A stretch of DNA of 64,000 bases from an archaeon (GCA_024275665.1 JAJRYS010000018.1:5442-69441), one strand, 5' to 3'. Positions 435 through 64,000 are shown, counted from the first letter of the stretch. The notes: a model not told the origin generated them from the sequence alone. Program-made: numbers and translations.

Positions 435-743
435 TTAGGAGTCAATGATTCTAAGAATTCCTTTCGTAGCATTCAACTCTACCATTGTTCCTTCTCTTAT
501 CTCAGGAACTTCTCCTGCTCCTACAATACAAGGAATGTTGAATTCTCTTGCTATTATTGCCCCGTGGCTTAGTATTCCTCCTCTTCGCATTACAAATCCC
601 TTGGTTTTTGAAGGGTTGAGGAATTCTGTTGGTTTAAGAGTGTCAAGTATGAGTATCCCTTCTTCTTCAAGCGATTTGACTACTCTTCCTCTCACTATAC
701 CAGGGCATGCTGATTTTCCAACGAAGACTTCATCCACTATCAA
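435..743 (-). CDS. stand-alone PEP-utilizing enzyme mobile (swivel phosphohistidine) domain protein, 102 aa
   Basis: Motif GGILSHGAIIAREFNIPCIVGAG matches the PEP-utilizers phosphohistidine domain signature (GGxxSHxAIxAREx GIPxVVG); no ATP-grasp or PEP-binding domain attached. Confidence 0.7.
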   Translation of the reverse strand: MIVDEVFVGKSACPGIVRGRVVKSLEEEGILILDTLKPTEFLNPSKTKGFVMRRGGILSHGAIIAREFNIPCIVGAGEVPEIREGTMVELNATKGILRIIDS

Positions 744-2250: not shown

Positions 2251-2898
2251 ATGAATTTTGAGGAAAAGCTTGAAAAACTTAAAAAAATTACTGAGAGGGA
2301 AATGCAGGGCAGTGGTTGTGTTGTTCACGACTGGAACCACGTGCTAAGGGTTTTCAGAAATGCGGAAATGCTGTGGAAGGAAGAAGGAGGAAACTGGGAG
2401 ATAATAGCACCAGCAGTGCTTCTTCATGACGTAGTACGCCCGGTCACGAAAGGAATCAAGAACGACCACGCGTTGCTCAGTTCTCATAAAGCAAGACCAA
2501 TCCTTGAAGAACTATGCTTTGACCACGTTGACAAGATAACGACATGCATTCTAAGGCATTCGAGTTCAAGCAGCAGGAAGCTTCCTGAAACAATTGAAGA
2601 GAAGATAGTATGGGACGCTGACAAGATTGACGGGTTCGGGTTGATGGGCGTAGCACGAACTATGATACTCTCAGGGGAGAGGAGCAAAGGAGTAGAAGAA
2701 ACAGCCAAGGAATGGCTTGAAGAGATTAAGAGAATAGCAGGAACAACAGAAGACATCGACACAGTGGTTGAGAAGTGGTTGTTCACAGACACTGCGAGGA
2801 GAAAGGCCAAGAAGAAAGTTGCTTTCTTCATCGACTTCTACAAAACTCTTCTCGGAGAATCAGAGGAAGAAAAGTATTATTCATTCTTCCAACCTTAG
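2251..2898 (+). CDS. HD-domain phosphohydrolase
   Basis: H…HD metal-binding motif (VLRVFRN…LLHDVVRP) and downstream D residue pattern typical of HD superfamily. Confidence 0.55.
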   Translation: MNFEEKLEKLKKITEREMQGSGCVVHDWNHVLRVFRNAEMLWKEEGGNWEIIAPAVLLHDVVRPVTKGIKNDHALLSSHKARPILEELCFDHVDKITTCILRHSSSSSRKLPETIEEKIVWDADKIDGFGLMGVARTMILSGERSKGVEETAKEWLEEIKRIAGTTEDIDTVVEKWLFTDTARRKAKKKVAFFIDFYKTLLGESEEEKYYSFFQP

Positions 2899-4428
2899 TC
2901 TTTTTACTACGAATTCTTTGTCAAGCGAGGCGAGGAACGGGCCTAGACGCGGGCCCCTGCTTTTGCCAAGCAGTAACTGGTAGAAGACCATGAAAGCAGT
3001 TTTTAAAGGAATCTCCTTCTCTTTTGCCTTGTTGTAAATGAATTGCTGTATTTCATCTCCTGCACGCGTTCCTGTTTCAATGAAGTCAGCAGTGTCTCTG
3101 AGGAGTTCTTTTACTTCTTCCCCCCACTCGCTCAGCATGACGTCCGGCATTTCTTCCTTGACAGTGAATTTGAATTGTTCCGGAGCGTAGTCCTGAACCC
3201 AGTTCCAAGCAAGCTTCAGCCTTTCGTCAGCATGCTCGTACGCGTGTCCTGTTTTCTTCAGGATTTTCTTGGCTTTTTCCACGTCCCCTAATGCTATCTG
3301 GATAGCGTTCACGCACACTGAGAACTGAGGAAGCTCAACATAACCGTGCTCTCCTATTCTTGAAAAGAAGTACCTGCGTGCCTCGTTTTCATCAGCACTG
3401 TTCTCCACACTGTAATACTTCTTCCTTGCTTCGTCAAAATAGTTGTAAGTGTTTAACAAGTCAGCGTCAAAGCTGATGTCAAAAGCCTTGTTGATCTTAG
3501 CAGTGTACAAATACCTTACTACTTCAGGCTCGTACACTCTCAGCAACTCAGTGACCGTGACCACATTTCCCTTCGAAGAACTCATCTTCTCCTTCTGGCC
3601 TTTCACGTTCACAAACTCGTACATTGGGCCTATTGGAGGCTCGTGTTCAAAAACCTGCCTAGCTATTAACACTCCAGTGTCCCAAGAGCCTCCTGCTGCT
3701 TTGTGGTCCTTGCCACTGCTCTCGAAGTCAACGTCATAGAAAGCCCAACGCATAGGCCAGTCAACCCTCCAAGGAAGCTTTGCATTACCAGGCTTCTTGC
3801 TGAAGTCAAGCACTGCTTTGTGACCGCAAACGCATTCGTACTCCAATTCATAGTTTCCAAGGTATTTTGCTTTCGTAGTGTCCTTGCCGCATTCCTCGCA
3901 GTACACTCTTACAGGAAGCCATCCTTCTTCTAATGGCTCTGCTCTGTACTTGTCAAGAATGTTTTTAATCAGTGAAGTGTTTTCTAATGCTTTTTTAACC
4001 ATTTCAACAAACGTTCCAGCAGGGTATTCTTTTGAAGCATGCTTGAAACTCACTTCTATTACAAGTTCTTGCATTTCTCTTATTACTGGTTCCTGGAAGT
4101 GTTCTGCGTAGGAGTCATGACAACCCCAAGGGTCAGGAGTCTTGCTAATAGGAATGCCAATGTACTTTTCCCATTCTGAAGGAACTCCTATTGGTACTTT
4201 CCTGAACCTGTCGTAATCATCCCAGAAGTACTGGTAAATTGCTTTGACTCCCTTGTCCAATAGTGCTTTGTAAACGAATTCCTGCGTGAGGATTTCCCTG
4301 AAGTTCCCAACGTGAACTATTCCAGAAGGAGTAATACCACTCTCTACTATGTACTCTTCTTTCTGTTTTCTCTTCACTATCTCGTCAGCATACTTGTCAG
4401 CCCAGTGCTTTGGTTCTTCCTCTTTCAA
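2881..4428 (-). CDS. lysK: lysyl-tRNA synthetase, class I (archaeal type)
   Basis: HVGNFRE (HIGH-like) and KMSSSKGN (KMSKS) motifs, 515 aa, class I LysRS architecture. Confidence 0.9.
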   Translation of the reverse strand: MKEEEPKHWADKYADEIVKRKQKEEYIVESGITPSGIVHVGNFREILTQEFVYKALLDKGVKAIYQYFWDDYDRFRKVPIGVPSEWEKYIGIPISKTPDPWGCHDSYAEHFQEPVIREMQELVIEVSFKHASKEYPAGTFVEMVKKALENTSLIKNILDKYRAEPLEEGWLPVRVYCEECGKDTTKAKYLGNYELEYECVCGHKAVLDFSKKPGNAKLPWRVDWPMRWAFYDVDFESSGKDHKAAGGSWDTGVLIARQVFEHEPPIGPMYEFVNVKGQKEKMSSSKGNVVTVTELLRVYEPEVVRYLYTAKINKAFDISFDADLLNTYNYFDEARKKYYSVENSADENEARRYFFSRIGEHGYVELPQFSVCVNAIQIALGDVEKAKKILKKTGHAYEHADERLKLAWNWVQDYAPEQFKFTVKEEMPDVMLSEWGEEVKELLRDTADFIETGTRAGDEIQQFIYNKAKEKEIPLKTAFMVFYQLLLGKSRGPRLGPFLASLDKEFVVKRLRLEE

Positions 4429-4638: not shown

Positions 4639-4782
4639 CGGGCCCGATGGGATTTTCGTGAAGAACTGCACTAAGAGCACGTCTTCTTTCGAACCCACGA
4701 CAACCTGGTTAAGAGCCAGGCGCTCTGCCATTCCAGGGATTAAAAACGCAACACGCTTTAACCCTGACTGAGCTACGGGCCC
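4639..4782 (-). tRNA. tRNA-Lys(CTT) with two putative introns (D-loop about 35 nt, T-loop about 35 nt), none at 37/38
   Basis: Minus strand: acceptor GGGCCCG/CGGGCCC, U8A9, D-stem GCTC…GAGC interrupted, anticodon stem CCTGG/CCAGG with loop CTCTTAA, T-stem GTGGG/CCCAT with TTCGAA loop interrupted by a hairpin-forming insert. Confidence 0.6.
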
Positions 4783-4859: not shown

Positions 4860-5378
4860 ATGATCACAGTACTGCGCTTGGGGCATAGGAGAGTAAGGGA
4901 TGCCAGGGTTTCCACTCACTGCGGGTTGGTTGCTCGTGCTTTCGGAGCAGACGGCATAGTGTATTCTGGTGAAAAGGATGAGAAATTGTTGGAAAGCATT
5001 GCTGACGTTAGCAGGCGTTGGGGAGGAGAATTCAAGGTTGCTTATAACAAGAACTGGCGCAAGGTGATACAGGAATTCAAAGGAGTGAAAGTGCACTTGA
5101 CAATGTACGGGCTGCCTTTCCAAGAACATGTTAGTAAACTGCGTGGAGAGGACTTGCTCGTGGTTGTTGGCGGTGAGAAAGTTCCTTGGGATGCTTACGA
5201 ATTATCTGATTTTAACCTAAGCGTTACTAGCCAGCCTCATTCTGAAATAGCTGCTCTCGCAGTGTTCTTGGATCACTTGTTCGATGGAAAAGAGCTTGGG
5301 AAAGAGTTTAAAGGAGGTTTGAAAGTAATTCCACAAGCCCGCGGCAAGATAGTGAGAACAGGGGAAGAAAAGGAATAA
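4860..5378 (+). CDS. trm56: tRNA (cytidine56-2'-O)-methyltransferase aTrm56 (SPOUT)
   Basis: N-terminal [26 protein letters not shown] is the aTrm56 signature; about 175 aa. Confidence 0.75.
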
Positions 5379-12714: not shown

Positions 12715-13114
12715 CGCTTACAAAAGTCTGAACATTGGAGGAAACTGTTGAATCCTTTAAAGGTCTTGCAGATGAAGGGCTCCTTGCTTGAATAGTAACT
12801 ATAGGATTCATTGATGAATCATAAACCTTAATGGTTAATTGTTTTTTATGCTTGCTTTTAAACAACGTGCTAAGAGCATTTCTTAGCAAGGTTTGCGCTT
12901 GTAATGTGTTCCCGTTCACAGCATAACTCACTGCTCTATCAAGGTCTCCTTTTGCTCTCATTGCTTGCAAAGCAGTTGAAGTTTGCAAAGCTGTTTCAAC
13001 CCCTGAAATTTGTGAAAAAGGAAAAGACTGCATGAATGCTATTGCAAATACTGAGAAAGAAGCGATTAGTAATAAGGAAACCACTGCATCAAGAGAAAAC
13101 ACAAACCCCTTCAT
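12674..13114 (-). CDS. minor pilin-like protein (class III signal peptide)
   Basis: MKGFVFSLDAVVSLLLIASF N-terminus. Confidence 0.5.
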   Translation of the reverse strand: MKGFVFSLDAVVSLLLIASFSVFAIAFMQSFPFSQISGVETALQTSTALQAMRAKGDLDRAVSYAVNGNTLQAQTLLRNALSTLFKSKHKKQLTIKVYDSSMNPIVTIQARSPSSARPLKDSTVSSNVQTFVSGDYYAIVYLQVWE

Positions 13115-19757: not shown

Positions 19758-19939
19758 AAAGCCTCAGTCCGCCTATCAATCATCATTCGCATGCCGCGGA
19801 AAAGCGTCTGATTGAGGATAATCATCATCGGCTGTTAATAATTATGAAAAATGTTGATTAAACAAACAAATGCTTTTAAATAAAATAAACTCAAACCAGT
19901 TTGAAAATTGATTTAATTATTAAAAACGAAAAAAAAGAT

Positions 19940-20526
19940 AATGAACAAAATAAGAATAAAAAAATTATCAAAAAAAAGAAGAGTACCTTCTTGAATTATT
20001 TCTAGGAGATGGGTATTTTTCAATAGATAAGAATAAGCATTACAAAACTTGTTTTTGTCTAAATCCAAAAAAAGACTTCTTGATAATGCTTAAAGTGGTA
20101 TTATTACTAAAAAAGATTGAGTTAAATTCTTATCTTATTAATAATAATGGATGTGTTGAGGTAAAAGTAAATTCAATACTATTTATGGATTATATGAAAG
20201 AAAGTTTGAAAAAATGGTGGGATGAACCGGAAAGTTATTTACTTGGAGTTATTAGTGGTCTTATTGATTCTGACGGAAATATTGGCAATGGTGAAATAGT
20301 AATAACAAATAAGAACAAAAGTATTTTAAAGAAAGTAAAAGAAATTATTAATAAGAAGAATATTCACACTAAGTTGTGGATAAAACAAAACAAAGGAAAA
20401 GAGGATAAGTGGAAGTTTAATATTTACAAATTGAGAATTGGAACTGCTTTAAAAAACCTTGATCATTGTTCTTTAAAGGTTAAGTTCTTGAATAGTGGGG
20501 ATTCCGCAGCGACTAACAGGCATTAA
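19940..20526 (+). CDS. LAGLIDADG homing endonuclease, double-motif, apparent frameshift in A8 run near 5' end
   Basis: ATG at 19940 gives MNKIRIKKLSKK then stop; the other frame, open from 19959, reads …EEYLLELFLGDGYFSIDKNKH… and continues into the listed ORF containing LGVISGLIDSDGNI: two LAGLIDADG motifs about 100 aa apart. Confidence 0.7.
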
Positions 20527-20647
20527 AAATGCTTGTTAGTTGTAAGGGTAGGGCAGCTTGGAGTGCCCGTCGGGCTCATATGCGTTCCGGTTCCAAAAGG
20601 AACGCGGAAACACCCGAAGGTCAGAGGTTCAAATCCTCTCCCCGCTA
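20508..20647 (+). tRNA. initiator tRNA-Met(CAT) with two putative introns (acceptor stem after pos 4, and 37/38)
   Basis: A1:U72, AGCG|…|GGG acceptor pairing with CCCCGCT, U8A9, D-stem GGGC/GCCC with A14 and G18G19, anticodon stem with three G:C (TCGGG/CCCGA), loop CTCATA, T-arm AGAGG-TTCAAAT-CCTCT, discriminator A. Confidence 0.6.
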
Positions 20648-44261: not shown

Positions 44262-44567
44262 CTTTTCTTTATTAGAACTTGCATATTCAAATGCATGAGT
44301 ATAATGAATGCACTTAACAGGACAGACATCCCTGCATAAGCCACAGTAAATGCATTTTCCCATGTCAAAATCAATCCTTCCTTTTTCATGAAAATCAACA
44401 GCTTTCACTGGACAGTACTTCTCACACAGTCTGCATCCAATGCACCTATCAGCTTCGTACAAAATTCTCCCCCTGAACCTTTCTTTAGGCTTTTTCTTCA
44501 CGAAAGGATGCAGTTCTGTGAAAGGCTCTTTGAAAAAGTTTATTATTATTTCTTTTAAAACACCCAT
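44241..44567 (-). CDS. group 4 hydrogenase 2x[4Fe-4S] subunit (NuoI/MbhN-like)
   Basis: CIGCRLCEKYCP and CIYCGLCRDVCP. Confidence 0.8.
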   Translation of the reverse strand: MGVLKEIIINFFKEPFTELHPFVKKKPKERFRGRILYEADRCIGCRLCEKYCPVKAVDFHEKGRIDFDMGKCIYCGLCRDVCPVKCIHYTHAFEYASSNKEKLRKNLV

Positions 44568-45427
44568 ACTAATCCACTCAATACTCTTATGAATTCTATT
44601 AATGCAATAATCATTATGAAGAACAATGACTTAAACGCCTGATCTACCCTGTAACGAGGGGTGCTTGCCTGGCTAAGTGACAGCCCTATCAAAGTGAAAA
44701 AACCACCAGTGACGTAGAGGAAAGGAGAACGCAGTCCAAACAACAATAAAGGAACTAGTAATACGTAGAATAGTCTTCTCATGTAGTTAGTTAATTCCAT
44801 GAAGAAAAGCCTTCTCCCAGAATACTCTGTTTCCACTGAAGTCAGCACTTCTGGTTCTGCTTCTGCAGTGTCGAAAGGAGTAATTTTCAACTCTACTACA
44901 CTCACAGCTATTAATGCGAAAGAAGCAAGAGGAAGGCTGAAAGCCAAGTAGTGGCTGCTTATGCTTGACAATGACAAGCCCCCTGAAACTATTACAAAAG
45001 AGAACACGCTTACAGCAAGCACTACTTCATAGCACACCATTAACACCATTTCTCTCATCGCTGCTGTTATTGAGAAAGGAGAGTCAGAACTGACTCCTGC
45101 TAAGACATAAAAACCACTACTGAGAATTGTTAAGTAAATCAAAAAAATGAAATCGTAATCAAACGCCAGCAAAGAAAAGGGAATAATCAAAAATAAAGCA
45201 TAAGTTGACAAGAAGTAGAAGAAAGGAGCGTTTTTGAAAAAAGGGTCGTTATTATCTTCAAGGGTTTGCTTGTGCCACAACTTTCTTAAATCATAAAAAG
45301 GCTGGACTACAGGAGGCCCTATCCTATGTTGGAACATTGCCATAAATTTCCTGTGCATTCCTTCAAACACTATTGCTATTATTGGAATTGTTAAGAAGAA
45401 AACAATTCTAAGGATTTCGCTTAACAT
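44555..45427 (-). CDS. group 4 hydrogenase membrane subunit (NuoH/MbhM-like)
   Basis: 290 aa, 8 TM, operon position between large subunit and FeS subunit. Confidence 0.6.
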   Translation of the reverse strand: MLSEILRIVFFLTIPIIAIVFEGMHRKFMAMFQHRIGPPVVQPFYDLRKLWHKQTLEDNNDPFFKNAPFFYFLSTYALFLIIPFSLLAFDYDFIFLIYLTILSSGFYVLAGVSSDSPFSITAAMREMVLMVCYEVVLAVSVFSFVIVSGGLSLSSISSHYLAFSLPLASFALIAVSVVELKITPFDTAEAEPEVLTSVETEYSGRRLFFMELTNYMRRLFYVLLVPLLLFGLRSPFLYVTGGFFTLIGLSLSQASTPRYRVDQAFKSLFFIMIIALIEFIRVLSGLVWVF

Positions 45428-46578
45428 GAATACTTCCTCCTGAATTCTGCTTCAGTCATCCACTCCTCTCTGTCTTCTTTTGCCACGAGCACTCTTTCCA
45501 TGCATGAAAAACAAGGGTCAAGAGAAGCAACTATTACTGGCACGTCCCCTATTTTCACTCCTTTTAATATTTTTTCAAGTATTTTTATGAATGCAAAAGT
45601 AGGAGTTCTTACTTTAGCTCTTCTTATCAACCCGTCTTCCACTTTCAAAAAGTAAAACAACTCTCCTCTTGGAGCCTCAACTCTTCCAATCGCTTCCCCT
45701 TCCTTGATGTTAGTTAATGAAAACTTTGGAATCTTCTCACTGGGAAGCATTTCAACACACTGCCTTATTATCCCCATTGACTCATGCACTTCTCTCATCC
45801 TAAGCAGGGTTCTTTCCATGGCATCTCCTTTCTTAATCACTATGGTTTTGAAATTTATATCAGCATAGGAATCATAGGGATCAATTCTTCTAACGTCATT
45901 ATCAATCCCACTTGCTCTTGCATTAGGGCCTATCAAACCGTATTCTATCGCAGTCTTCTTACTAATCTTTCCTACTCCTTTAAGCCTTTCCTTTATAACT
46001 TTGTTTTTCTTTATCTCGTCTTCATAATCTTTTAATTTTTCTTGCATGCTGTCAAGACAGTCAAGCACTTCTCTTTCCTGCACTGGAGCAATGTCATACC
46101 TGAGAGAACCAATCTTACAAATGTTTTTATGAACCCTGTTACCGCAAATGCTTTCAAACAAGTCAAGCACTCCTTCCCTCTCTCTCCACAAGTACTGGAA
46201 CAAAGTATCAAAGCCTATTTCATGCATCATGAAACCAGCCCATAGCAAGTGGGAAGAAATACGCTCTAACTCAAACAAAATTGTTCTTATCAGTTTCACT
46301 CTTTCATTAACTTCTTTCTTCATCATGTCTTCAACAGTGCGTATGAAAGCGCGTTCATGAGAAATAGAGCAAATTCCGCAAATTCGCGAAGCAACATACA
46401 TTGCTTGATCCACGTTCTTTCCTTCAAGCAGGCCTTCTACTCCTTTATGAGTGTAACCAAGTCTCATGTCAACGCTTCTTACTTCTTCTCCTTCAAGCTT
46501 TAGTTTTAACAGCATGGGTTCTTTCAAAGCAGGAGACTGAGGCCCTACAGGCATTACAAAATCATGCATTCTTCTCAC
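45421..46578 (-). CDS. [NiFe] hydrogenase large subunit, group 4 (NuoD/MbhL-like)
   Basis: N-terminal RICGICSISH and C-terminal DPCFSCMER nickel-binding cysteine motifs both present. Confidence 0.85.
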   Translation of the reverse strand: MRRMHDFVMPVGPQSPALKEPMLLKLKLEGEEVRSVDMRLGYTHKGVEGLLEGKNVDQAMYVASRICGICSISHERAFIRTVEDMMKKEVNERVKLIRTILFELERISSHLLWAGFMMHEIGFDTLFQYLWREREGVLDLFESICGNRVHKNICKIGSLRYDIAPVQEREVLDCLDSMQEKLKDYEDEIKKNKVIKERLKGVGKISKKTAIEYGLIGPNARASGIDNDVRRIDPYDSYADINFKTIVIKKGDAMERTLLRMREVHESMGIIRQCVEMLPSEKIPKFSLTNIKEGEAIGRVEAPRGELFYFLKVEDGLIRRAKVRTPTFAFIKILEKILKGVKIGDVPVIVASLDPCFSCMERVLVAKEDREEWMTEAEFRRKYSC

Positions 46579-46864
46579 CTTTCAACAACGGGTGTTTGTT
46601 TTTTTCTTCTTCAGGAAGGAACAAAGGAACATGAAGATTAGGATTGCCCTCGAACTCCACGCCGTAATAATCATGGATCTCCCTCTCGAACAAATCAGCC
46701 ACTGGATGTTCTCTTATAATGCTCTTAGTCCTCATGCTCCTCCTACCAACCTTCCTGATTCTTTTAATAAGCTTTCCATCGCCTTTATCAAAATAATACA
46801 ATAACCTGAAATCCTCTTTCTTAGGTCCTTGGTCTTGAACGCAAACAATAGCCACTAACCTCAT
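46562..46864 (-). CDS. NuoC/MbhK-like subunit
   Basis: HPVADLFEREIHDYYGVEFEGNP. Confidence 0.55.
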   Translation of the reverse strand: MRLVAIVCVQDQGPKKEDFRLLYYFDKGDGKLIKRIRKVGRRSMRTKSIIREHPVADLFEREIHDYYGVEFEGNPNLHVPLFLPEEEKNKHPLLKGEKNA

Positions 46865-47283
46865 TCTTCTTTCACCATCCTCAACGCTTTAAGCAAACCA
46901 TCAATAATAGCTTCTGGTCTCGGAGGACATCCTGGCACGTAAACGCTTACCGGGATGTGTTTGTCTACTGGTCCTGCGAAGTTATAAGCTTCTGCAAAAG
47001 GCCCTCCTGTGATAGCGCAAGAACCAACAGCCATCACTACTTTCTTTTCAGCCATTTGAGAGTAAATCTTTTTCAGCCTCTTCACTGCTTTTTTGTTCAA
47101 ACAACCCTGCACTATTAGCACGTCAGCATTCTTAGGACTGCTCTTGTAAACCACTCCAAACCTCTCCACGTCATACCTTGGAGTGAGAGTAGCAAGCACT
47201 TCCAAGTTGCATCCGTTGCAACCACCGACATCGTAGTCAATCACCCAAGGACTTTTCTTAACGTAGTTGTGTTTCTTCTTCAT
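46861..47283 (-). CDS. hydrogenase small subunit (NuoB/MbhJ-like)
   Basis: GGCNGC, GSCAITGGPF, VPGCPPRPE cysteine motifs. Confidence 0.8.
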   Translation of the reverse strand: MKKKHNYVKKSPWVIDYDVGGCNGCNLEVLATLTPRYDVERFGVVYKSSPKNADVLIVQGCLNKKAVKRLKKIYSQMAEKKVVMAVGSCAITGGPFAEAYNFAGPVDKHIPVSVYVPGCPPRPEAIIDGLLKALRMVKEE

Positions 47284-47441
47284 AATAACACCTTCACAGC
47301 TTCTGCAAGCAAGAGAAAGAAAAACACTACGGAAAGTACTTTCAGCAAGTTTTTCTTATTGAAGAAGTGCTCGTAATGTTTTGGAGTCCTGTAACCCACG
47401 TAATCCGCTTCTTCTCCACTGAGGTAAATATCTGGCTTCAT
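47280..47441 (-). CDS. small membrane-anchored hydrogenase-operon ORF (53 aa), not in ORF track
   Basis: Starts 1 nt after stop of upstream gene (TAGTATG), stop overlaps NuoB-like start (ATGA); C-terminal TM LSVVFFFLLLAEAV. Confidence 0.45.
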   Translation of the reverse strand: MKPDIYLSGEEADYVGYRTPKHYEHFFNKKNLLKVLSVVFFFLLLAEAVKVLL

Positions 47442-47442
47442 A

Positions 47443-48321
47443 CTATGCCACCATCGAAAGCAATCTCCAAGTTATTTGAGGAACAAGGCCAAGGATTATT
47501 ATGCTCCCTGCAAGCACTCCGTTTAGGAAAGTAACTGGTTTTGGCACTTTCCTCTTTTCCCCTTCCCCGACTAATAATACATACACTATTTTGTAATACA
47601 TTATGAACAATAATAATGCTGCGAATACTCCCAGCAGAGAGATTGAAGGGCTTGTTTTGAAAGCAGTAGTGAACAACACCCATTCTGATATGAATATATT
47701 GAAACCAGGCAATCCTGCTAATGACAAACAAGCAATAGTAGCAAAAGCATCATTCCACTTGTTGTAGAACACGAATCCTCTTAACTCATGAACATATTCC
47801 TTGCCTCTTGCAAACACGCCAATAGTCAAAAACAAGCAGAGCCCTGCTATGGAATAGTGAAATACTTGAGCTGTTTTTATGATGATTTCTGCCCCTGTCA
47901 TCATGCCAACACTTAAATCTAAGAAGACGAAGGTTACTTGAGCAGCGTTTGAAATAAGCAAGTACTTCCTCAGGTTTTTTTCAAAAACGCCAGCCACTGC
48001 AAGTAGACAGATAACCATGAGAGAAGCGAAAGCAGCTAGTTTGTAAGGAAAGAAAATAGATTCAAACAAATGAAGTAACAAGAAGGAGAAAGAAACAGCA
48101 GCAAGCATGCTTGAGCCAGCGAACAAGCCGTAAGGAAGTTTTTTGTAGTATAATAAAGGAAGGAACAGGAATAATGACAATGAAGGGAGGCTCAAACTTG
48201 CAAATGAAACAGCACCTAGTAAAACCAGCCACGTGAGGCTTTTCCTGTCATAGTAAAAGCAGTAAACTCCTGTGAACAAGAGAACCATTCCAAGCAACGT
48301 GGCGAATAAGGCCTCAACCAT
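47443..48321 (-). CDS. hydrogenase-associated polytopic membrane subunit (Mrp/NuoL-like fragment size)
   Basis: 292 aa, about 9 TM, first gene of operon. Confidence 0.4.
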   Translation of the reverse strand: MVEALFATLLGMVLLFTGVYCFYYDRKSLTWLVLLGAVSFASLSLPSLSLFLFLPLLYYKKLPYGLFAGSSMLAAVSFSFLLLHLFESIFFPYKLAAFASLMVICLLAVAGVFEKNLRKYLLISNAAQVTFVFLDLSVGMMTGAEIIIKTAQVFHYSIAGLCLFLTIGVFARGKEYVHELRGFVFYNKWNDAFATIACLSLAGLPGFNIFISEWVLFTTAFKTSPSISLLGVFAALLLFIMYYKIVYVLLVGEGEKRKVPKPVTFLNGVLAGSIIILGLVPQITWRLLSMVA

Positions 48322-48357
48322 GCTATTACTAAAACCCAGCGAGGTTTATATTTCAAA

Positions 48358-48527
48358 CGCCTCGGGCAGGATTTTCTCACCGTCCAGTTGGCTTTTTTCC
48401 GCTGTGAAGCGGAAACCAGGCCACTTCAGCTTCAGCTGAATGTGGTCTCAGCCAGCCGGATACGGATGTTCGAACCTGCGGTCTCACGGTTAACAGCCGT
48501 GCGCTTTAGCCACTAAGCTACCGAGGC
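48358..48527 (-). tRNA. tRNA-Asn(GTT) with about 100-nt intron in T-loop (59/60)
   Basis: Minus strand: GCCTCGG TA GCTT AGTGGCTA AAGC G CACGG CTGTTAA CCGTG AGAC CGCAGG TTCGAA [insert] T CCTGC CCGAGGC G. Confidence 0.6.
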
Positions 48528-48598
48528 GTTGTTTGTTCAGTGTCTGAGAATGTTTGTGTGTAGTGTTTGTTTCTTTAGAATTGGTTTTATTTAAAACA

Positions 48599-49876
48599 TT
48601 AAGGATAGTATCTTTCAGGTGTTCTTGGGAATGGTATTGCGTCTTTTATAGAGTCAAGCTTGCAAATCCACTGGATCAAGCGCTCTACTCCCATTCCGAA
48701 TCCAGCGTGAGGCACTGCTCCGTACTTCCTGAGGTCGAAGTACCATTCGTAGTGTTTTGGATCTTCTCCTTTTTCAATGAGTGCTTTCTTCATTTCCTCG
48801 ATGTCAAGGTCTCTTTCACTCCCTCCTATTACTTCGAATCCCACTTCTGGGAGTAAGACGTCTAGGCATCTTGCTACTTCAGGGTCTTCAGGATCTCTTG
48901 GTTTGTAGAAAGCCATTGCTGATTTCGGGTAATGAGTTACTATTAACGGCTTGTCGTAGTGAGTCATTAATTGTTTTTCTTCCTTGGTTCTGAGGTCTTT
49001 CCCGAAAGGAACACTTATTCCATCTTTTTCAAGAATCTTCAAAGCTTCTCTGTAAGTGATTCTTGGAAAAGGAGGTTTTATTCTGAGCATTTCTTCAGGG
49101 TCTCTTCCCAGGAGTTTGAGTTCTTCAGGGTATTCTTCTGCAACGTATTCGCATACGTATGAGATTAGTTCTTCACTTGTCTTTGCAAGCTCGTCCAAGT
49201 CCATCCAAGCTGCTTCCATCTCAGCGTGCCAGTATTCTGTCAAGTGGCGTGCTGTTTTTGACTTCTCAGCTCTGAACGAAGGGTTTATAGTGTATATTCT
49301 TTCAAGAGCAGGGAGTAATGCTTCTGCGTAGAACTGCCATGTTTGTGACAATCTTAGTTTTTTCCCAAAGTAGTCTACTTCAAATAATTCCAAACCACTT
49401 TCAGAAGTCATGGTGATGAAAGGAGCGTGAGTCTCGTAGTATCCTTTTTTCTTGAAGTATTCCCTAATGGCCCAGAACACAGCGCTTCTAACCTTCCACA
49501 CTGCTGTCAGCTTTCTTGACCTGACTGCCAAGTGCCTTACGTCAAGAAGGAATTCTTCTGAATAGTCTTTCGTAATCGGGAATCTTTCAGCAAGTTGCAC
49601 TACTTCGTATTCTTCTACTCTTACTTCGTAGCCTCCTGGCGCTCTCTCATCTTTGACTACTTTTCCTTTTAGTTTGATGCTTGATTCTATGGTTGTTTTT
49701 TCTGCTTTTTCAAAGAAAGGAGAGTCTTTTTTCACAGTGCATTGGATTATGCCGCTTGAGTCTCGCAGGATTATGAAAACTACTTCTTTCGTGGCTCTGT
49801 GTCTGTAAACCCAGCCACGCAACCACACGCTTTCTCCTTCGTGTTCCGGCACTTCAGAAACTTTTATGAAATCCAT
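48599..49876 (-). CDS. asnS: asparaginyl-tRNA synthetase (class IIb)
   Basis: OB-fold N-terminus, motif 2 FRAE, RHLTEYWHAEME and SQTWQFYAEA fit AsnRS rather than AspRS, motif 3 GFGMGVERL. Confidence 0.7.
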   Translation of the reverse strand: MDFIKVSEVPEHEGESVWLRGWVYRHRATKEVVFIILRDSSGIIQCTVKKDSPFFEKAEKTTIESSIKLKGKVVKDERAPGGYEVRVEEYEVVQLAERFPITKDYSEEFLLDVRHLAVRSRKLTAVWKVRSAVFWAIREYFKKKGYYETHAPFITMTSESGLELFEVDYFGKKLRLSQTWQFYAEALLPALERIYTINPSFRAEKSKTARHLTEYWHAEMEAAWMDLDELAKTSEELISYVCEYVAEEYPEELKLLGRDPEEMLRIKPPFPRITYREALKILEKDGISVPFGKDLRTKEEKQLMTHYDKPLIVTHYPKSAMAFYKPRDPEDPEVARCLDVLLPEVGFEVIGGSERDLDIEEMKKALIEKGEDPKHYEWYFDLRKYGAVPHAGFGMGVERLIQWICKLDSIKDAIPFPRTPERYYP

Positions 49877-61896: not shown

Positions 61897-64000
61897 TCAC
61901 ACAAAATCAGCAAGAGATGATTGGTTCTTGTCGATTTTTTCTTCTTCTTTTTCTCCGAAAATACTGTTCAAGTCAATTTCCACTAGTTTCAGTCTTTGTT
62001 TTATGTAATCCTCCAACCCGTACTTGTCAGCTATTTCTTGTGAGACTTTCAAGTACTTTTCAATGCTTCCCCTGTGCACTGTTAATAAGAGTTTGCCACC
62101 GCATTTCAAACACTTCCCACTTATGGGAGCGCGTCTGTACTTCGCGTTACAATCAACGCATCTGAAGGACTGTTGTCCGAAAGAACGCAGGTTTCCGTAA
62201 ATATCACGGATGAAGTGGAAGTTAATCACTCTCCTGGCAACGTCTTTCTCATCAACTGCTCTTATCTTCTCAGCTAGTCTTAATTGTTTTTCCACTTTAT
62301 CACTCATTGATTTTATTTGCTTGTAAGCAGTTACTAACACACCTTCGTCAATGCTCGTAGTGTCAAAGAAAAAACCTAATCCATTGTTATGTTCAGGAGT
62401 GCCTAGCTTGTTCTTCACTATTGGTATTTTCACTTCTGAAGGCATTACTATTTTCTGTGTTGCTTCGTAGAATTCTAACGGAAGCTTGCAAGTGGTTTCA
62501 ATGTCATGTGCTTGGTCATCTACTTCAGCAGGATTCATCTTAGTAGTAAGTACTAGAAAAATGTCTTCTGTTGCTCCTGCCTTGTCAGGAACGTATTTTC
62601 TTGAAAAGTTTATCAAAGCGTCAAGCATTAATGTTACTGAGTTCTCGTCACCATCACAATCTCGTCTCGTAGCGCAGTGGAAGTAAGGGTGAGCGTATAA
62701 ACCGTTGGCTTTGGAAAAGCCTATTACCCTTCCAAGTACTCCTGCTGATATGTGAGGAGCCATTCCAATGACCAAGTGTCCTATTAAGTCTTCTTTCTTC
62801 TCAGCGTTGTAAAAACGTGGCAAGCCGTAGAATTTTTCCAGCAAGTCATCAATGAACTGAGAGACTCTTAGCAAGTACTCTCCTGCTCTTTCAGACAATA
62901 CGAGGTCTTGAGGCCATAATTCTACTACTTGCTCTTCGCTTGTCAAAGGCTTGCCAGTATAATCCTCTTCGTATCCTAGTTCTCTTAGTTTTTCAATGCT
63001 TGTTCCTATCTCTCTTGGTTTGAAATGAGTTAACGGAAGGTTAGTAGCGTCAAACCTCGAAGTTCCATCCTTGAACACGTACACGTCATGCTTTGCCCGT
63101 AGTATTACTTTTTCAAGAGGCTCGAAGTACTTCTCCTTATTAACAGTTCCCTTAACTCCTTTCATCTTGCTTGGCATTCTTTCCTCTAGTTTTCTGAGCG
63201 TTTCTTCTACTTCTTTTTTCAAGTTTACTACTTGCTTGTGGTATGGTACTGCTCTTGCCTTGCAACGAGAGCATTCCTCAGAATCAACGACCCTCCCGCA
63301 CTTAGTGCAAACGTATTTCTGTACTGCTCTGCCACCGCACTCGCACTTGTAACTCGTTAACTCCTTGCCACACTTCTCGCATACGAGTACTGGCATGTCC
63401 AGTACTATTTTTTCTTTTTCAATTGCTTTTACAATATCTCTTGTCTTGCCGCCGTAATTGCTTATAGGGTATAATCCGTGTGGAGCAGGGCTCATCAGTC
63501 TTTCTTTTGCTTTCTCAGGCCTCCCCATCCTCGCTCCTATGTATGTGGGTGCTTTGTCATACACTGGAAAAGGAGCAACAGAGTTTACCACTTCCAACAC
63601 GTTTTCTTTTTCTTCGCATAGTTTTTTATAATCAACTTTTTCATCAAGTCCCAATGTTTTTATGAGTGCTTTGTGCCCTTCTCTTATTATTACGAAGTCG
63701 TCTCTGAGCAAGTGCTGGACGCATAGTTTTTCAAGAAGCCTCTTCTCAGGAGCGTTTCTTACTTTGAATTGTGTTGTTTCCACCCCTTCAAGAGTATTTA
63801 TTTTCTCTTCTTCTCCTTTTTTCAACCATTCTACTAATAGTAGTAGTTCTTTTTTTGACAAGTCGTTGTAGAAGAAAGTATACTTAGGATGAAGAGGAAT
63901 ATCATGCTCTTCTGACAGTCTTATTGCTTGTTCCTCACTTATACCCCAGGCGTTAACATTAATTCCTTTTGATTCAGCAATTTGCTGCCACCACTCCTCG
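61897..64000 (-). CDS. polC: DNA polymerase II (PolD) large subunit DP2, C-terminal about 700 aa; gene continues past window end
   Basis: Frame stays open upstream of listed start to position 64000; GMAPHISAGVLGRVIGF, RRDCDGDE catalytic-like acidic motif, C-terminal zinc finger RCVDC…CLKCGG, internal Cys4 cluster. Confidence 0.6.
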   Translation of the reverse strand, partial: EEWWQQIAESKGINVNAWGISEEQAIRLSEEHDIPLHPKYTFFYNDLSKKELLLLVEWLKKGEEEKINTLEGVETTQFKVRNAPEKRLLEKLCVQHLLRDDFVIIREGHKALIKTLGLDEKVDYKKLCEEKENVLEVVNSVAPFPVYDKAPTYIGARMGRPEKAKERLMSPAPHGLYPISNYGGKTRDIVKAIEKEKIVLDMPVLVCEKCGKELTSYKCECGGRAVQKYVCTKCGRVVDSEECSRCKARAVPYHKQVVNLKKEVEETLRKLEERMPSKMKGVKGTVNKEKYFEPLEKVILRAKHDVYVFKDGTSRFDATNLPLTHFKPREIGTSIEKLRELGYEEDYTGKPLTSEEQVVELWPQDLVLSERAGEYLLRVSQFIDDLLEKFYGLPRFYNAEKKEDLIGHLVIGMAPHISAGVLGRVIGFSKANGLYAHPYFHCATRRDCDGDENSVTLMLDALINFSRKYVPDKAGATEDIFLVLTTKMNPAEVDDQAHDIETTCKLPLEFYEATQKIVMPSEVKIPIVKNKLGTPEHNNGLGFFFDTTSIDEGVLVTAYKQIKSMSDKVEKQLRLAEKIRAVDEKDVARRVINFHFIRDIYGNLRSFGQQSFRCVDCNAKYRRAPISGKCLKCGGKLLLTVHRGSIEKYLKVSQEIADKYGLEDYIKQRLKLVEIDLNSIFGEKEEEKIDKNQSSLADFV

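Follow-up and report, generated by a model that had tools for sequence, protein, structure and literature searches.

Locus and host

The precursor gene for tRNA-Asn(GUU) is located at positions 48527..48358 on the minus strand of the window, a term which refers here to the whole 64-kb stretch of DNA that was analysed. It is 170 nt long and contains all the arms of a class I tRNA, the sole anomaly being 97 nt that stand between T-loop positions 6 and 7. The preliminary description of this DNA had given the same coordinates without a strand, and its reading of a tRNA-Asn(GTT) directly downstream of asnS with a T-loop intron of about 100 nt agrees with what is found: the insert is exactly 97 nt long, asnS ends 71 nt upstream of the tRNA, and a 73-nt tRNA-Asn is left after excision. 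The features of the locus are as follows.

48599..49876, minus strand: asnS, asparaginyl-tRNA synthetase (AsnRS), 425 aa, with Pfam domains tRNA-synt_2 (5e-71) and tRNA_anti-codon
48588..48595, minus strand: candidate archaeal TATA box TTTAAATA, read from the sequence, ~64 nt upstream of tRNA position 1
48469..48527, minus strand: tRNA-Asn exon 1, tRNA positions 1-59, from the acceptor 5' strand through T-loop U54-A59 (sequence and Rfam tRNA model)
48372..48468, minus strand: predicted tRNA-Asn intron, 97 nt, at T-loop position 59/60
48358..48371, minus strand: tRNA-Asn exon 2, positions 60-73, with U60, the T-stem 3' strand CCUGC, the acceptor 3' strand CCGAGGC and G73

Judged by its position, TTTAAATA might provide the tRNA with a promoter of its own and a leader of ~35-40 nt. 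Directly downstream of the tRNA, a complex I or group-4 hydrogenase-like module extends over 44555..48321 on the minus strand, comprising antiporter-like subunit, NuoB-like, NuoD/NiFe large-subunit-like, and NuoH-like proteins. DPANN metagenome-assembled genomes (MAGs) are usually described as metabolically reduced. Such a module is unexpected here because the nearest AsnRS relatives come from DPANN MAGs.

FttA/aCPSF1, the PolD large subunit DP2, TFE-alpha, Cdc6/Orc1, class I LysRS, and aTrm56, all encoded in the window, identify the host as an archaeon, and PolD speaks against Crenarchaeota. Proteasome and a Taw1-like radical SAM protein are encoded as well. The DP2 ORF (61897..63861, minus strand) begins at position 186 of the central-domain profile and lacks the N-terminal part, which may lie upstream; alternatively, a split of the gene or a frameshift may account for the gap. 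In DPANN MAGs, the homologues of the AsnRS carry the annotation asparagine--tRNA ligase; none of them is close, the identity being 72% at most. The best matches belong to hot-spring MAGs labelled 'archaeon' and Candidatus Aenigmatarchaeota, and the more distant ones to other DPANN groups. The host is a DPANN-type archaeon, probably related to Aenigmatarchaeota and probably thermophilic.

Structure and detection of the tRNA-Asn gene

Read 5' to 3', the gene is GCCTCGG-TA-GCTT-AGTGGCTA-AAGC-G-CACGG-CTGTTAA-CCGTG-AGACC-GCAGG-TTCGAA-[97 nt]-T-CCTGC-CCGAGGC-G. The acceptor stem (GCCTCGG/CCGAGGC) is followed by the discriminator G73, the D arm is GCTT-AGTGGCTA-AAGC, and the anticodon arm CACGG-CTGTTAA-CCGTG carries GTT, the anticodon for Asn. 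The variable region is AGACC, the T stem is GCAGG/CCTGC, and the T loop consists of TTCGAA, the 97 nt, and T. Exon 1 hence holds the acceptor 5' strand, the D arm, the anticodon arm, the variable region, the T-stem 5' strand, and U54-A59. The canonical arms named earlier, including the acceptor and the anticodon loop CTGTTAA, can all be read in the sequence. CCA is not encoded by the gene.

The Rfam tRNA model matches 48520..48455 at 32.7 bits (gathering score 29) and is aligned only up to the T loop. ARAGORN run with its intron options makes no call on the unspliced locus. When the 97 nt are excised in silico, the same program calls a 73-nt tRNA-Asn(gtt) whose stems are all Watson-Crick paired. 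Excision thereby restores a complete cloverleaf with its conserved bases: U8, A14, G18G19, U33, G53, U54U55C56, A58, and C61 are present by eye in the spliced form, and G15 is able to pair with C48. The 12-nt segment formed by the 3' T-stem and acceptor strands stands 97 nt from its partner and occurs once in the window, as compared with 0.04 occurrences expected when one mismatch at most is allowed. As a rough estimate, such a segment would turn up by chance within 300 nt with a probability of 300 x 4^-12, or ~2e-5.

Predicted splice position and BHB motif

Owing to the run of A at the junction, excision after position 57, 58 or 59 gives an identical mature T loop, UUCGAAU, and splicing at 57/58, 58/59 or 59/60 would consequently yield the same product. 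The archaeal bulge-helix-bulge (BHB) motif is a 4-bp helix with a 3-nt bulge on either side, the splice sites lying in the bulges (PMC4090602), and the modelled geometry of tRNA-Asn fits it best at 59/60. By inspection, splicing at 57/58 or 58/59 leaves the mature RNA unchanged and makes the BHB geometry worse, while splicing at 60/61 would put C61 into the bulge and break the T stem. The elements of the motif are placed as follows, with ^ marking a splice site.

48471..48474, minus strand: central BHB helix, exon strand, U54 U55 C56 G57, opposite intron nt 95, 94, 93 and 92
48374..48377, minus strand: central BHB helix, intron strand, A92 G93 A94 A95
48468..48470, minus strand: predicted 5' splice-site bulge, A58 A59 ^ C (intron nt 1), placed by BHB symmetry and the motif definition in PMC4090602
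48371..48373, minus strand: predicted 3' splice-site bulge, A96 A97 ^ U60, between the T stem and the central helix

The central helix consists of three Watson-Crick pairs and a G.A (U54-A95, U55-A94, C56-G93, and G57.A92). In this conformer the T stem serves as the outer helix and the intron closing helix of ~15 bp as the inner one. The unconstrained minimum free energy (MFE) of the junction fold in ViennaRNA is -49.0 kcal/mol, with the 9x9 region wholly open; forcing the three Watson-Crick pairs gives -48.7 kcal/mol, only 0.3 kcal/mol above the MFE. On the 3' side the motif is canonical, with the T stem, the AA^U bulge, and the helix. The 5' side is imperfect, since the fourth pair is G57.A92 and C1-G91 can pair, which makes the 5' bulge smaller. 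The motif is thus a relaxed BHB and not the strict 3-4-3 form, which is found in the same-site introns of the window tRNA-Lys and of a metagenomic tRNA-Asn (L116). A k-turn was considered as well, as the tandem G57.A92 and A58.G91 could be sheared pairs, but by eye the loop lies on the wrong strand.

By analogy with the family, the precursor, ~170 nt plus leader and trailer, would be transcribed first. U54-G57 would then pair with intron A92-A95 and, together with the T stem and the long closing helix, would form the relaxed BHB. The archaeal tRNA-splicing endonuclease (EndA) would cut after A59 and before U60, and an RtcB-type ligase would join the exons, whereas the freed 97-nt intron would probably be circularised and degraded. 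The normal tertiary contacts and modifications of the T loop would be expected only once the tRNA is spliced. The predicted spliced junction (A59-U60) is ...GGUUCGAA joined to UCCUGCCCGAGGCG. A Pfam scan of 38 ORFs from the window detected neither an EndA nor an RtcB domain. For relaxed motifs, an endonuclease of the (alpha-beta)2, epsilon2 or loop-bearing type is required (PMC3239211, PMC5829648), and DPANN lineages with a loop-bearing EndA have many disrupted tRNAs (PMC5829648).

Other interrupted tRNAs in the window

Two further tRNA genes lie in the window, one of them next to its cognate synthetase gene.

4639..4782, minus strand: tRNA-Lys(CUU), two introns
2881..4428, minus strand: lysS, class I lysyl-tRNA synthetase, with tRNA-Lys directly upstream
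4860..5378, plus strand: aTrm56, tRNA C56 2'-O-methyltransferase, Pfam E = 7e-44, divergent and beside tRNA-Lys
20508..20647, plus strand: tRNAi-Met(CAT), alternative 5' end 20494
19762..19832, minus strand: C/D box sRNA by its appearance, with terminal stem, C AUGAUGA, D' CAGA, C' AUGAUGA, and D CUGA

The T-loop intron of tRNA-Lys is 35 nt long (4653..4687, minus strand) and follows TTCGAA at position 59/60. Its unconstrained MFE fold is a textbook BHB with the T stem, a UUCG:CGAA helix including G57-C, and the bulges AAA and AAU. The second intron of this gene, ~33 nt, lies in the D loop. The tRNAi-Met gene carries a ~34-nt insert in the acceptor stem (between AGCG and GGG, ~position 4/5) along with a canonical 31-nt 37/38 intron, and ARAGORN calls a tRNA-Met when both are removed. 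The three tRNAs therefore hold five introns, four of which are at non-canonical positions. The preliminary description had stated that all three carry introns at positions other than 37/38; they do, though the initiator tRNA possesses a 37/38 intron too. Its remark that two tRNAs sit beside the cognate synthetase gene is borne out by tRNA-Asn with asnS and tRNA-Lys with the class I lysS. On the 64-kb window ARAGORN reports 0 tRNA genes, though three are present, and Rfam gives partial matches at the gathering score for two of them and 22.8 bits for the third.

In the precursors of both tRNAs with a T-loop intron, tRNA-Asn and tRNA-Lys, C56 takes part in the central BHB helix. Being sequestered there, it would presumably receive its Cm56 modification after splicing.

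An ORF with a LAGLIDADG_3 domain (19987..20526, plus strand; Pfam E = 1.8e-8) runs into the 5' exon and intron of tRNAi-Met. By hand translation, the LAGLIDADG-like motif LLELFLGDGYF stands upstream of the first standard start codon of this ORF, which may encode a homing endonuclease that is either in decay or co-transcribed with tRNAi-Met. The element at 19762..19832 resembles a canonical archaeal C/D box sRNA; its Rfam sR1 score of 18.7 bits is below the gathering score. A weak C/D-box-family match to SNORD102 is located at 12825..12892 on the plus strand (33.4 bits; gathering score 47).

Comparative evidence

The closest locus (L001), with an AsnRS 72% identical to that of the window, has an intron-less tRNA-Asn 40 nt downstream of asnS. 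The acceptor stem and G73 of this tRNA are as in the window, and its T loop is TTCAAAT. The spliced window tRNA-Asn is 80% identical to it. Two T-stem pairs differ, and both sides of each have changed across the insert: 50:64 from C-G to U-A and 51:63 from A-U to C-G. Compensatory changes of this sort would be expected if selection acted on the gene for a joined T arm.

Among the 20 nearest asnS loci, only this one has a tRNA-Asn directly downstream, so that gain or loss of the intron can be compared in just one close relative. Outside the window, tRNA-Asn adjoins asnS in three DPANN-type MAG loci, L001 included, and all of these genes are intron-less.

L001, 4312..4386: tRNA-Asn, downstream of asnS
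L078 (Woesearchaeota MAG), 4338..4414: tRNA-Asn, downstream of asnS
L035 (Undinarchaeota MAG), 2845..2919: tRNA-Asn, just upstream of asnS

The linkage between the cognate tRNA and synthetase genes hence recurs.

A metagenome scan with a pattern for the 5' part of tRNA-Asn yielded 92 genes. The great majority (86) are uninterrupted, five have T-loop inserts, and one (L086) seems to have an acceptor insert. The five T-loop inserts follow TTCRAR and are unrelated in sequence to the window intron.

L116: tRNA-Asn, T-loop insert of 49 nt, perfect hBHBh' with A57-U, intron strand UGGA
L160: tRNA-Asn, T-loop insert of 52 nt, G57.A as in the window, intron strand AGAA
L092: tRNA-Asn, T-loop insert of 53 nt, G57.A as in the window, intron strand AGAA
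L095, from 722, plus strand: tRNA-Asn, T-loop insert of 219 nt
L125, minus strand: tRNA-Asn, T-loop insert of >200 nt that ends at the contig end, its 3' junction unseen

Pairing to positions 54-57 is kept in all four of the complete metagenomic T-loop inserts. Co-varying pairing of the central helix is also seen in the window tRNA-Lys (CGAA), in L116 (UGGA), and in L092 and L160 (AGAA). All six 59/60 introns compared have AA^U as the 3' bulge except L095, where it is AG^U. Furthermore, a scan for T-loop introns in the fetched loci found an AT-rich 110-nt insert at 59/60 in a tRNA-Lys(CTT) of an Aenigmatarchaeota MAG (L008, from 6512, plus strand), where the AA^U bulge is again present by eye. 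Besides tRNA-Asn of the window, a 59/60 insert is thus found in the window tRNA-Lys, L008, L092, L095, L116, and L160.

Some further observations were made in these scans. The L095 insert ends in GGGAG before T and its pairing with 54-57 is weak (U.G, U.G, C-G, and G.U); its 219 nt exceed the range of 11-129 nt quoted in a 2014 review (PMC4090602). In the tRNA-Asn of L086 (minus strand, ~574..700 of the reverse strand), the T arm is normal, and the 3' acceptor strand seems to be broken by a ~55-nt insert, CC/GGGATTAG...TTTTCT/GAGGC. Scanner matches in L027, L123, and L159 were false positives in which an intact tRNA is followed by a duplicated 3' end, and the tRNA-Ser matches of L113, L121, L127, and L155 are possibly of the same type; none of them was counted. 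In L113, L127, L155 (171-nt 'insert'), L121 (35 nt), L123, and L159, a tRNA (Ser-GCT, Met or Ile) is followed by a second copy of its T-stem/acceptor 3' end, which could be due to a T-loop intron or, equally, to the duplicated attachment site of an integrated element.

The cloverleaf, the relaxed BHB, the comparison with L001, and the shared 59/60 site all agree with the preliminary reading of a functional, intron-containing tRNA gene. The locus is very likely such a gene, encoding tRNA-Asn(GUU) in an uncultured DPANN archaeon and spliced through a relaxed BHB motif.

Composition, fold, and possible function of the insert

The insert is GC-rich, as noted earlier, with 54% GC as compared with 37% for the window. 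It is predicted to fold into a three-way junction made of the closing helix and two hairpins.

48418..48448, minus strand: hairpin A, intron nt 21-51, in both the MFE and the centroid structure; includes UUCAGC-UGAA-GCUGAA (the CAGCTGAAGCTGAAG stretch)
48396..48415, minus strand: hairpin B, intron nt 54-73, UUUCCGCU-UCAC-AGCGGAAA, which holds CCGCTGTGAAGCGG

The CCGCTGTGAAGCGG hairpin pointed out in the preliminary description is hairpin B (plus strand 48399..48412, unique in the window), and the CAGCTGAAGCTGAAG repeat lies inside hairpin A. The simplest reading of the fold is that a long GC-rich helix holds both splice sites together.

The same features invite the proposal that the intron is spliced and in addition carries a functional small RNA, either a guide or a new structured, probably circular, non-coding RNA. 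Its length lies inside the range of archaeal tRNA introns (11-129 nt) and far above their medians of 12-25 nt (PMC4090602), and one class of long introns, that of tRNA-Trp with a median of 65 nt, hosts a C/D box sRNA (PMC4090602). The fold is significantly stable (-41.6 kcal/mol, z = -4.2), none of 200 shuffled sequences being as stable, and its GC content stands out from the surroundings. However, neither RUGAUGA nor even UGAUG is present in the intron as a C box, a C' box is lacking as well, and CUGA occurs just three times, whereas the genuine C/D sRNA of the window has canonical boxes; the absence of C/D boxes had been recorded correctly from the start. The intron is therefore not a C/D box sRNA of the tRNA-Trp type. 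A circularly permuted C/D arrangement fails by eye on spacer length and likewise has no C box, and an H/ACA reading fails by eye for want of a 3' ACA element. No Rfam family matches the intron at E <= 10, and no snoRNA-family match occurs in 48200..48700 at that threshold.

Homologues of the intron are equally absent from the window, 170 related loci, viral contigs, and phage records. Within the 64-kb window there is no second copy; blastn-short against 80 asnS loci and the window returned chance 9-11-mers only; two segments of the intron had no exact match in viral contigs; and in phage records blastn matched exon 1 only, in annotated tRNA-Asn genes. The T-loop introns of other tRNA-Asn genes differ from it in sequence and range from 49 to 219 nt. 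Moreover, a long GC-rich closing helix is accounted for well enough if, in a probable thermophile, it serves to keep the two splice sites together. A homing endonuclease could not be encoded in the intron because it is only 97 nt long. An additional small RNA in the spliced intron is accordingly unlikely.

There is likewise only a slight chance that the intron forms a stable, probably circularised, non-coding RNA with a function of its own or, more broadly, that the recurrent long 59/60 introns are kept adaptively. Such introns measure 49-219 nt in tRNA-Asn and 35-110 nt in tRNA-Lys in this DPANN lineage and similar metagenomic genes. If they were adaptive, they could destroy the T-arm attachment sites of integrating elements, or could order T-loop modification and end processing.

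A second alternative is an unspliced tRNA pseudogene, inactivated by a short mobile or foreign segment, for instance a MITE-like one. The ends of the insert are imperfect inverted repeats (intron nt 1-19 and 76-91), the run of A at both junctions can be read as a short target-site duplication, and the gene is not called by ARAGORN. Against this, both exons are intact, with no mismatch in any stem and with all the checked conserved bases, and the T stem has changed in a compensatory manner across the insert relative to L001. The insert ends exactly at the places required by a BHB, inserts that keep the pairing fill the same site in the window tRNA-Lys and in independent lineages, and the 64 kb hold no further copy of the insert. 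A pseudogene of this kind is very improbable.

Known group I and group II introns are much longer than 97 nt, typically above 200 nt. Group I introns do occur in archaea, and the paper concerned also mentions Aenigmarchaeota (PMC6125680), but a self-splicing intron of either group, or a split or permuted tRNA fragment in need of trans-splicing, is barely conceivable here and is effectively refuted by the short length and the absence of any Intron_gpI or group II match in Rfam at E <= 10. As the minus strand carries the two exons as one contiguous gene in the usual order, neither trans-splicing nor permutation is needed.

Comparison with known systems

A functional, spliced tRNA-Asn is the favoured reading, and its intron can be compared with several known types. 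Introns of tRNA genes recur at certain non-canonical sites, of which 59/60 is one (PMC4090602). T-loop introns at this position have already been described, DPANN archaea included (PMC3239211, PMC4090602), and the novelty implied in the preliminary description is not sustained.

The nearest parallel is ARMAN-2 (Ca. Micrarchaeum acidiphilum), where an intron of 13 nt interrupts pre-tRNA-Cys(GCA) at 59/60 and the junction is a relaxed hBH motif (Fujishima et al. 2011, PMC3239211). The epsilon2 EndA of ARMAN-2 cleaves this intron in vitro, and the tRNA-Pro(GGG) of the same organism has introns at 53/54 and 59/60 (PMC3239211). Both cases share a DPANN host, a 59/60 T-loop intron, a relaxed BHB-type junction, and the T stem as outer helix. 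As in the ARMAN-2 genome, where many other tRNAs are disrupted, further interrupted tRNAs are found in the window. The two differ in tRNA identity (Asn and Cys) and in the intron itself, which is a 97-nt three-way junction in one and 13 nt in the other. Moreover, cleavage has been observed in vitro for the ARMAN-2 intron and is predicted for that of tRNA-Asn.

In Thermoproteales and other Crenarchaeota, introns with BHB, hBH or HBh' motifs occur at 53/54, 56/57, and 59/60, up to three per gene (Sugahara et al. 2008, Fujishima et al. 2010, as summarised in PMC4090602), and are processed by broad-specificity endonucleases (PMC4090602). The window resembles these genomes in its non-canonical and multiple introns, five over three tRNAs, but its host is a DPANN archaeon with PolD. 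In Thermoproteales, families of intron sequences suggest transposition; the tRNA-Asn intron gives no sign of it, with no second copy in the window.

The euryarchaeal tRNA-Trp intron is likewise unusually long and structured and is removed via a BHB motif. It differs in lying at 37/38 and in guiding 2'-O-methylation through its C, D', C', and D boxes, whereas the tRNA-Asn intron lies at 59/60 and lacks both a C and a C' box. T-arm introns of algal nucleomorphs and Cyanidioschyzon merolae also interrupt an otherwise normal tRNA in the T arm (PMC4090602), but their hosts are eukaryotes, the nucleomorph inserts are very short (3-24 nt), and the genes are unrelated to the tRNA-Asn gene of the window. 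At the level of its sequence, the tRNA-Asn gene appears to be a member of the non-canonical archaeal BHB-type intron class.

Significance

The intron type is already known, and what is unusual in tRNA-Asn is the length of 97 nt and the GC-rich fold with a three-way junction. Knowledge of how such introns work is unchanged by the finding. A full-text literature search turned up no description of tRNA introns in Aenigmarchaeota specifically. The chief value lies in annotation, as standard tRNA finders miss such genes. With ARAGORN calling none of the three tRNAs and Rfam giving fragments of two at the gathering score, genomes of this kind look short of tRNAs, for example of tRNA-Asn, unless intron-aware archaeal methods are used. 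The same annotation point was made for DPANN and Asgard genomes in a 2018 survey (PMC5829648). For the biology of the group, an Aenigmatarchaeota-like lineage joins the archaea with heavily interrupted tRNA genes, and the 59/60 site can hold long, structured inserts. Together, these two features imply an endonuclease of relaxed specificity in the lineage.
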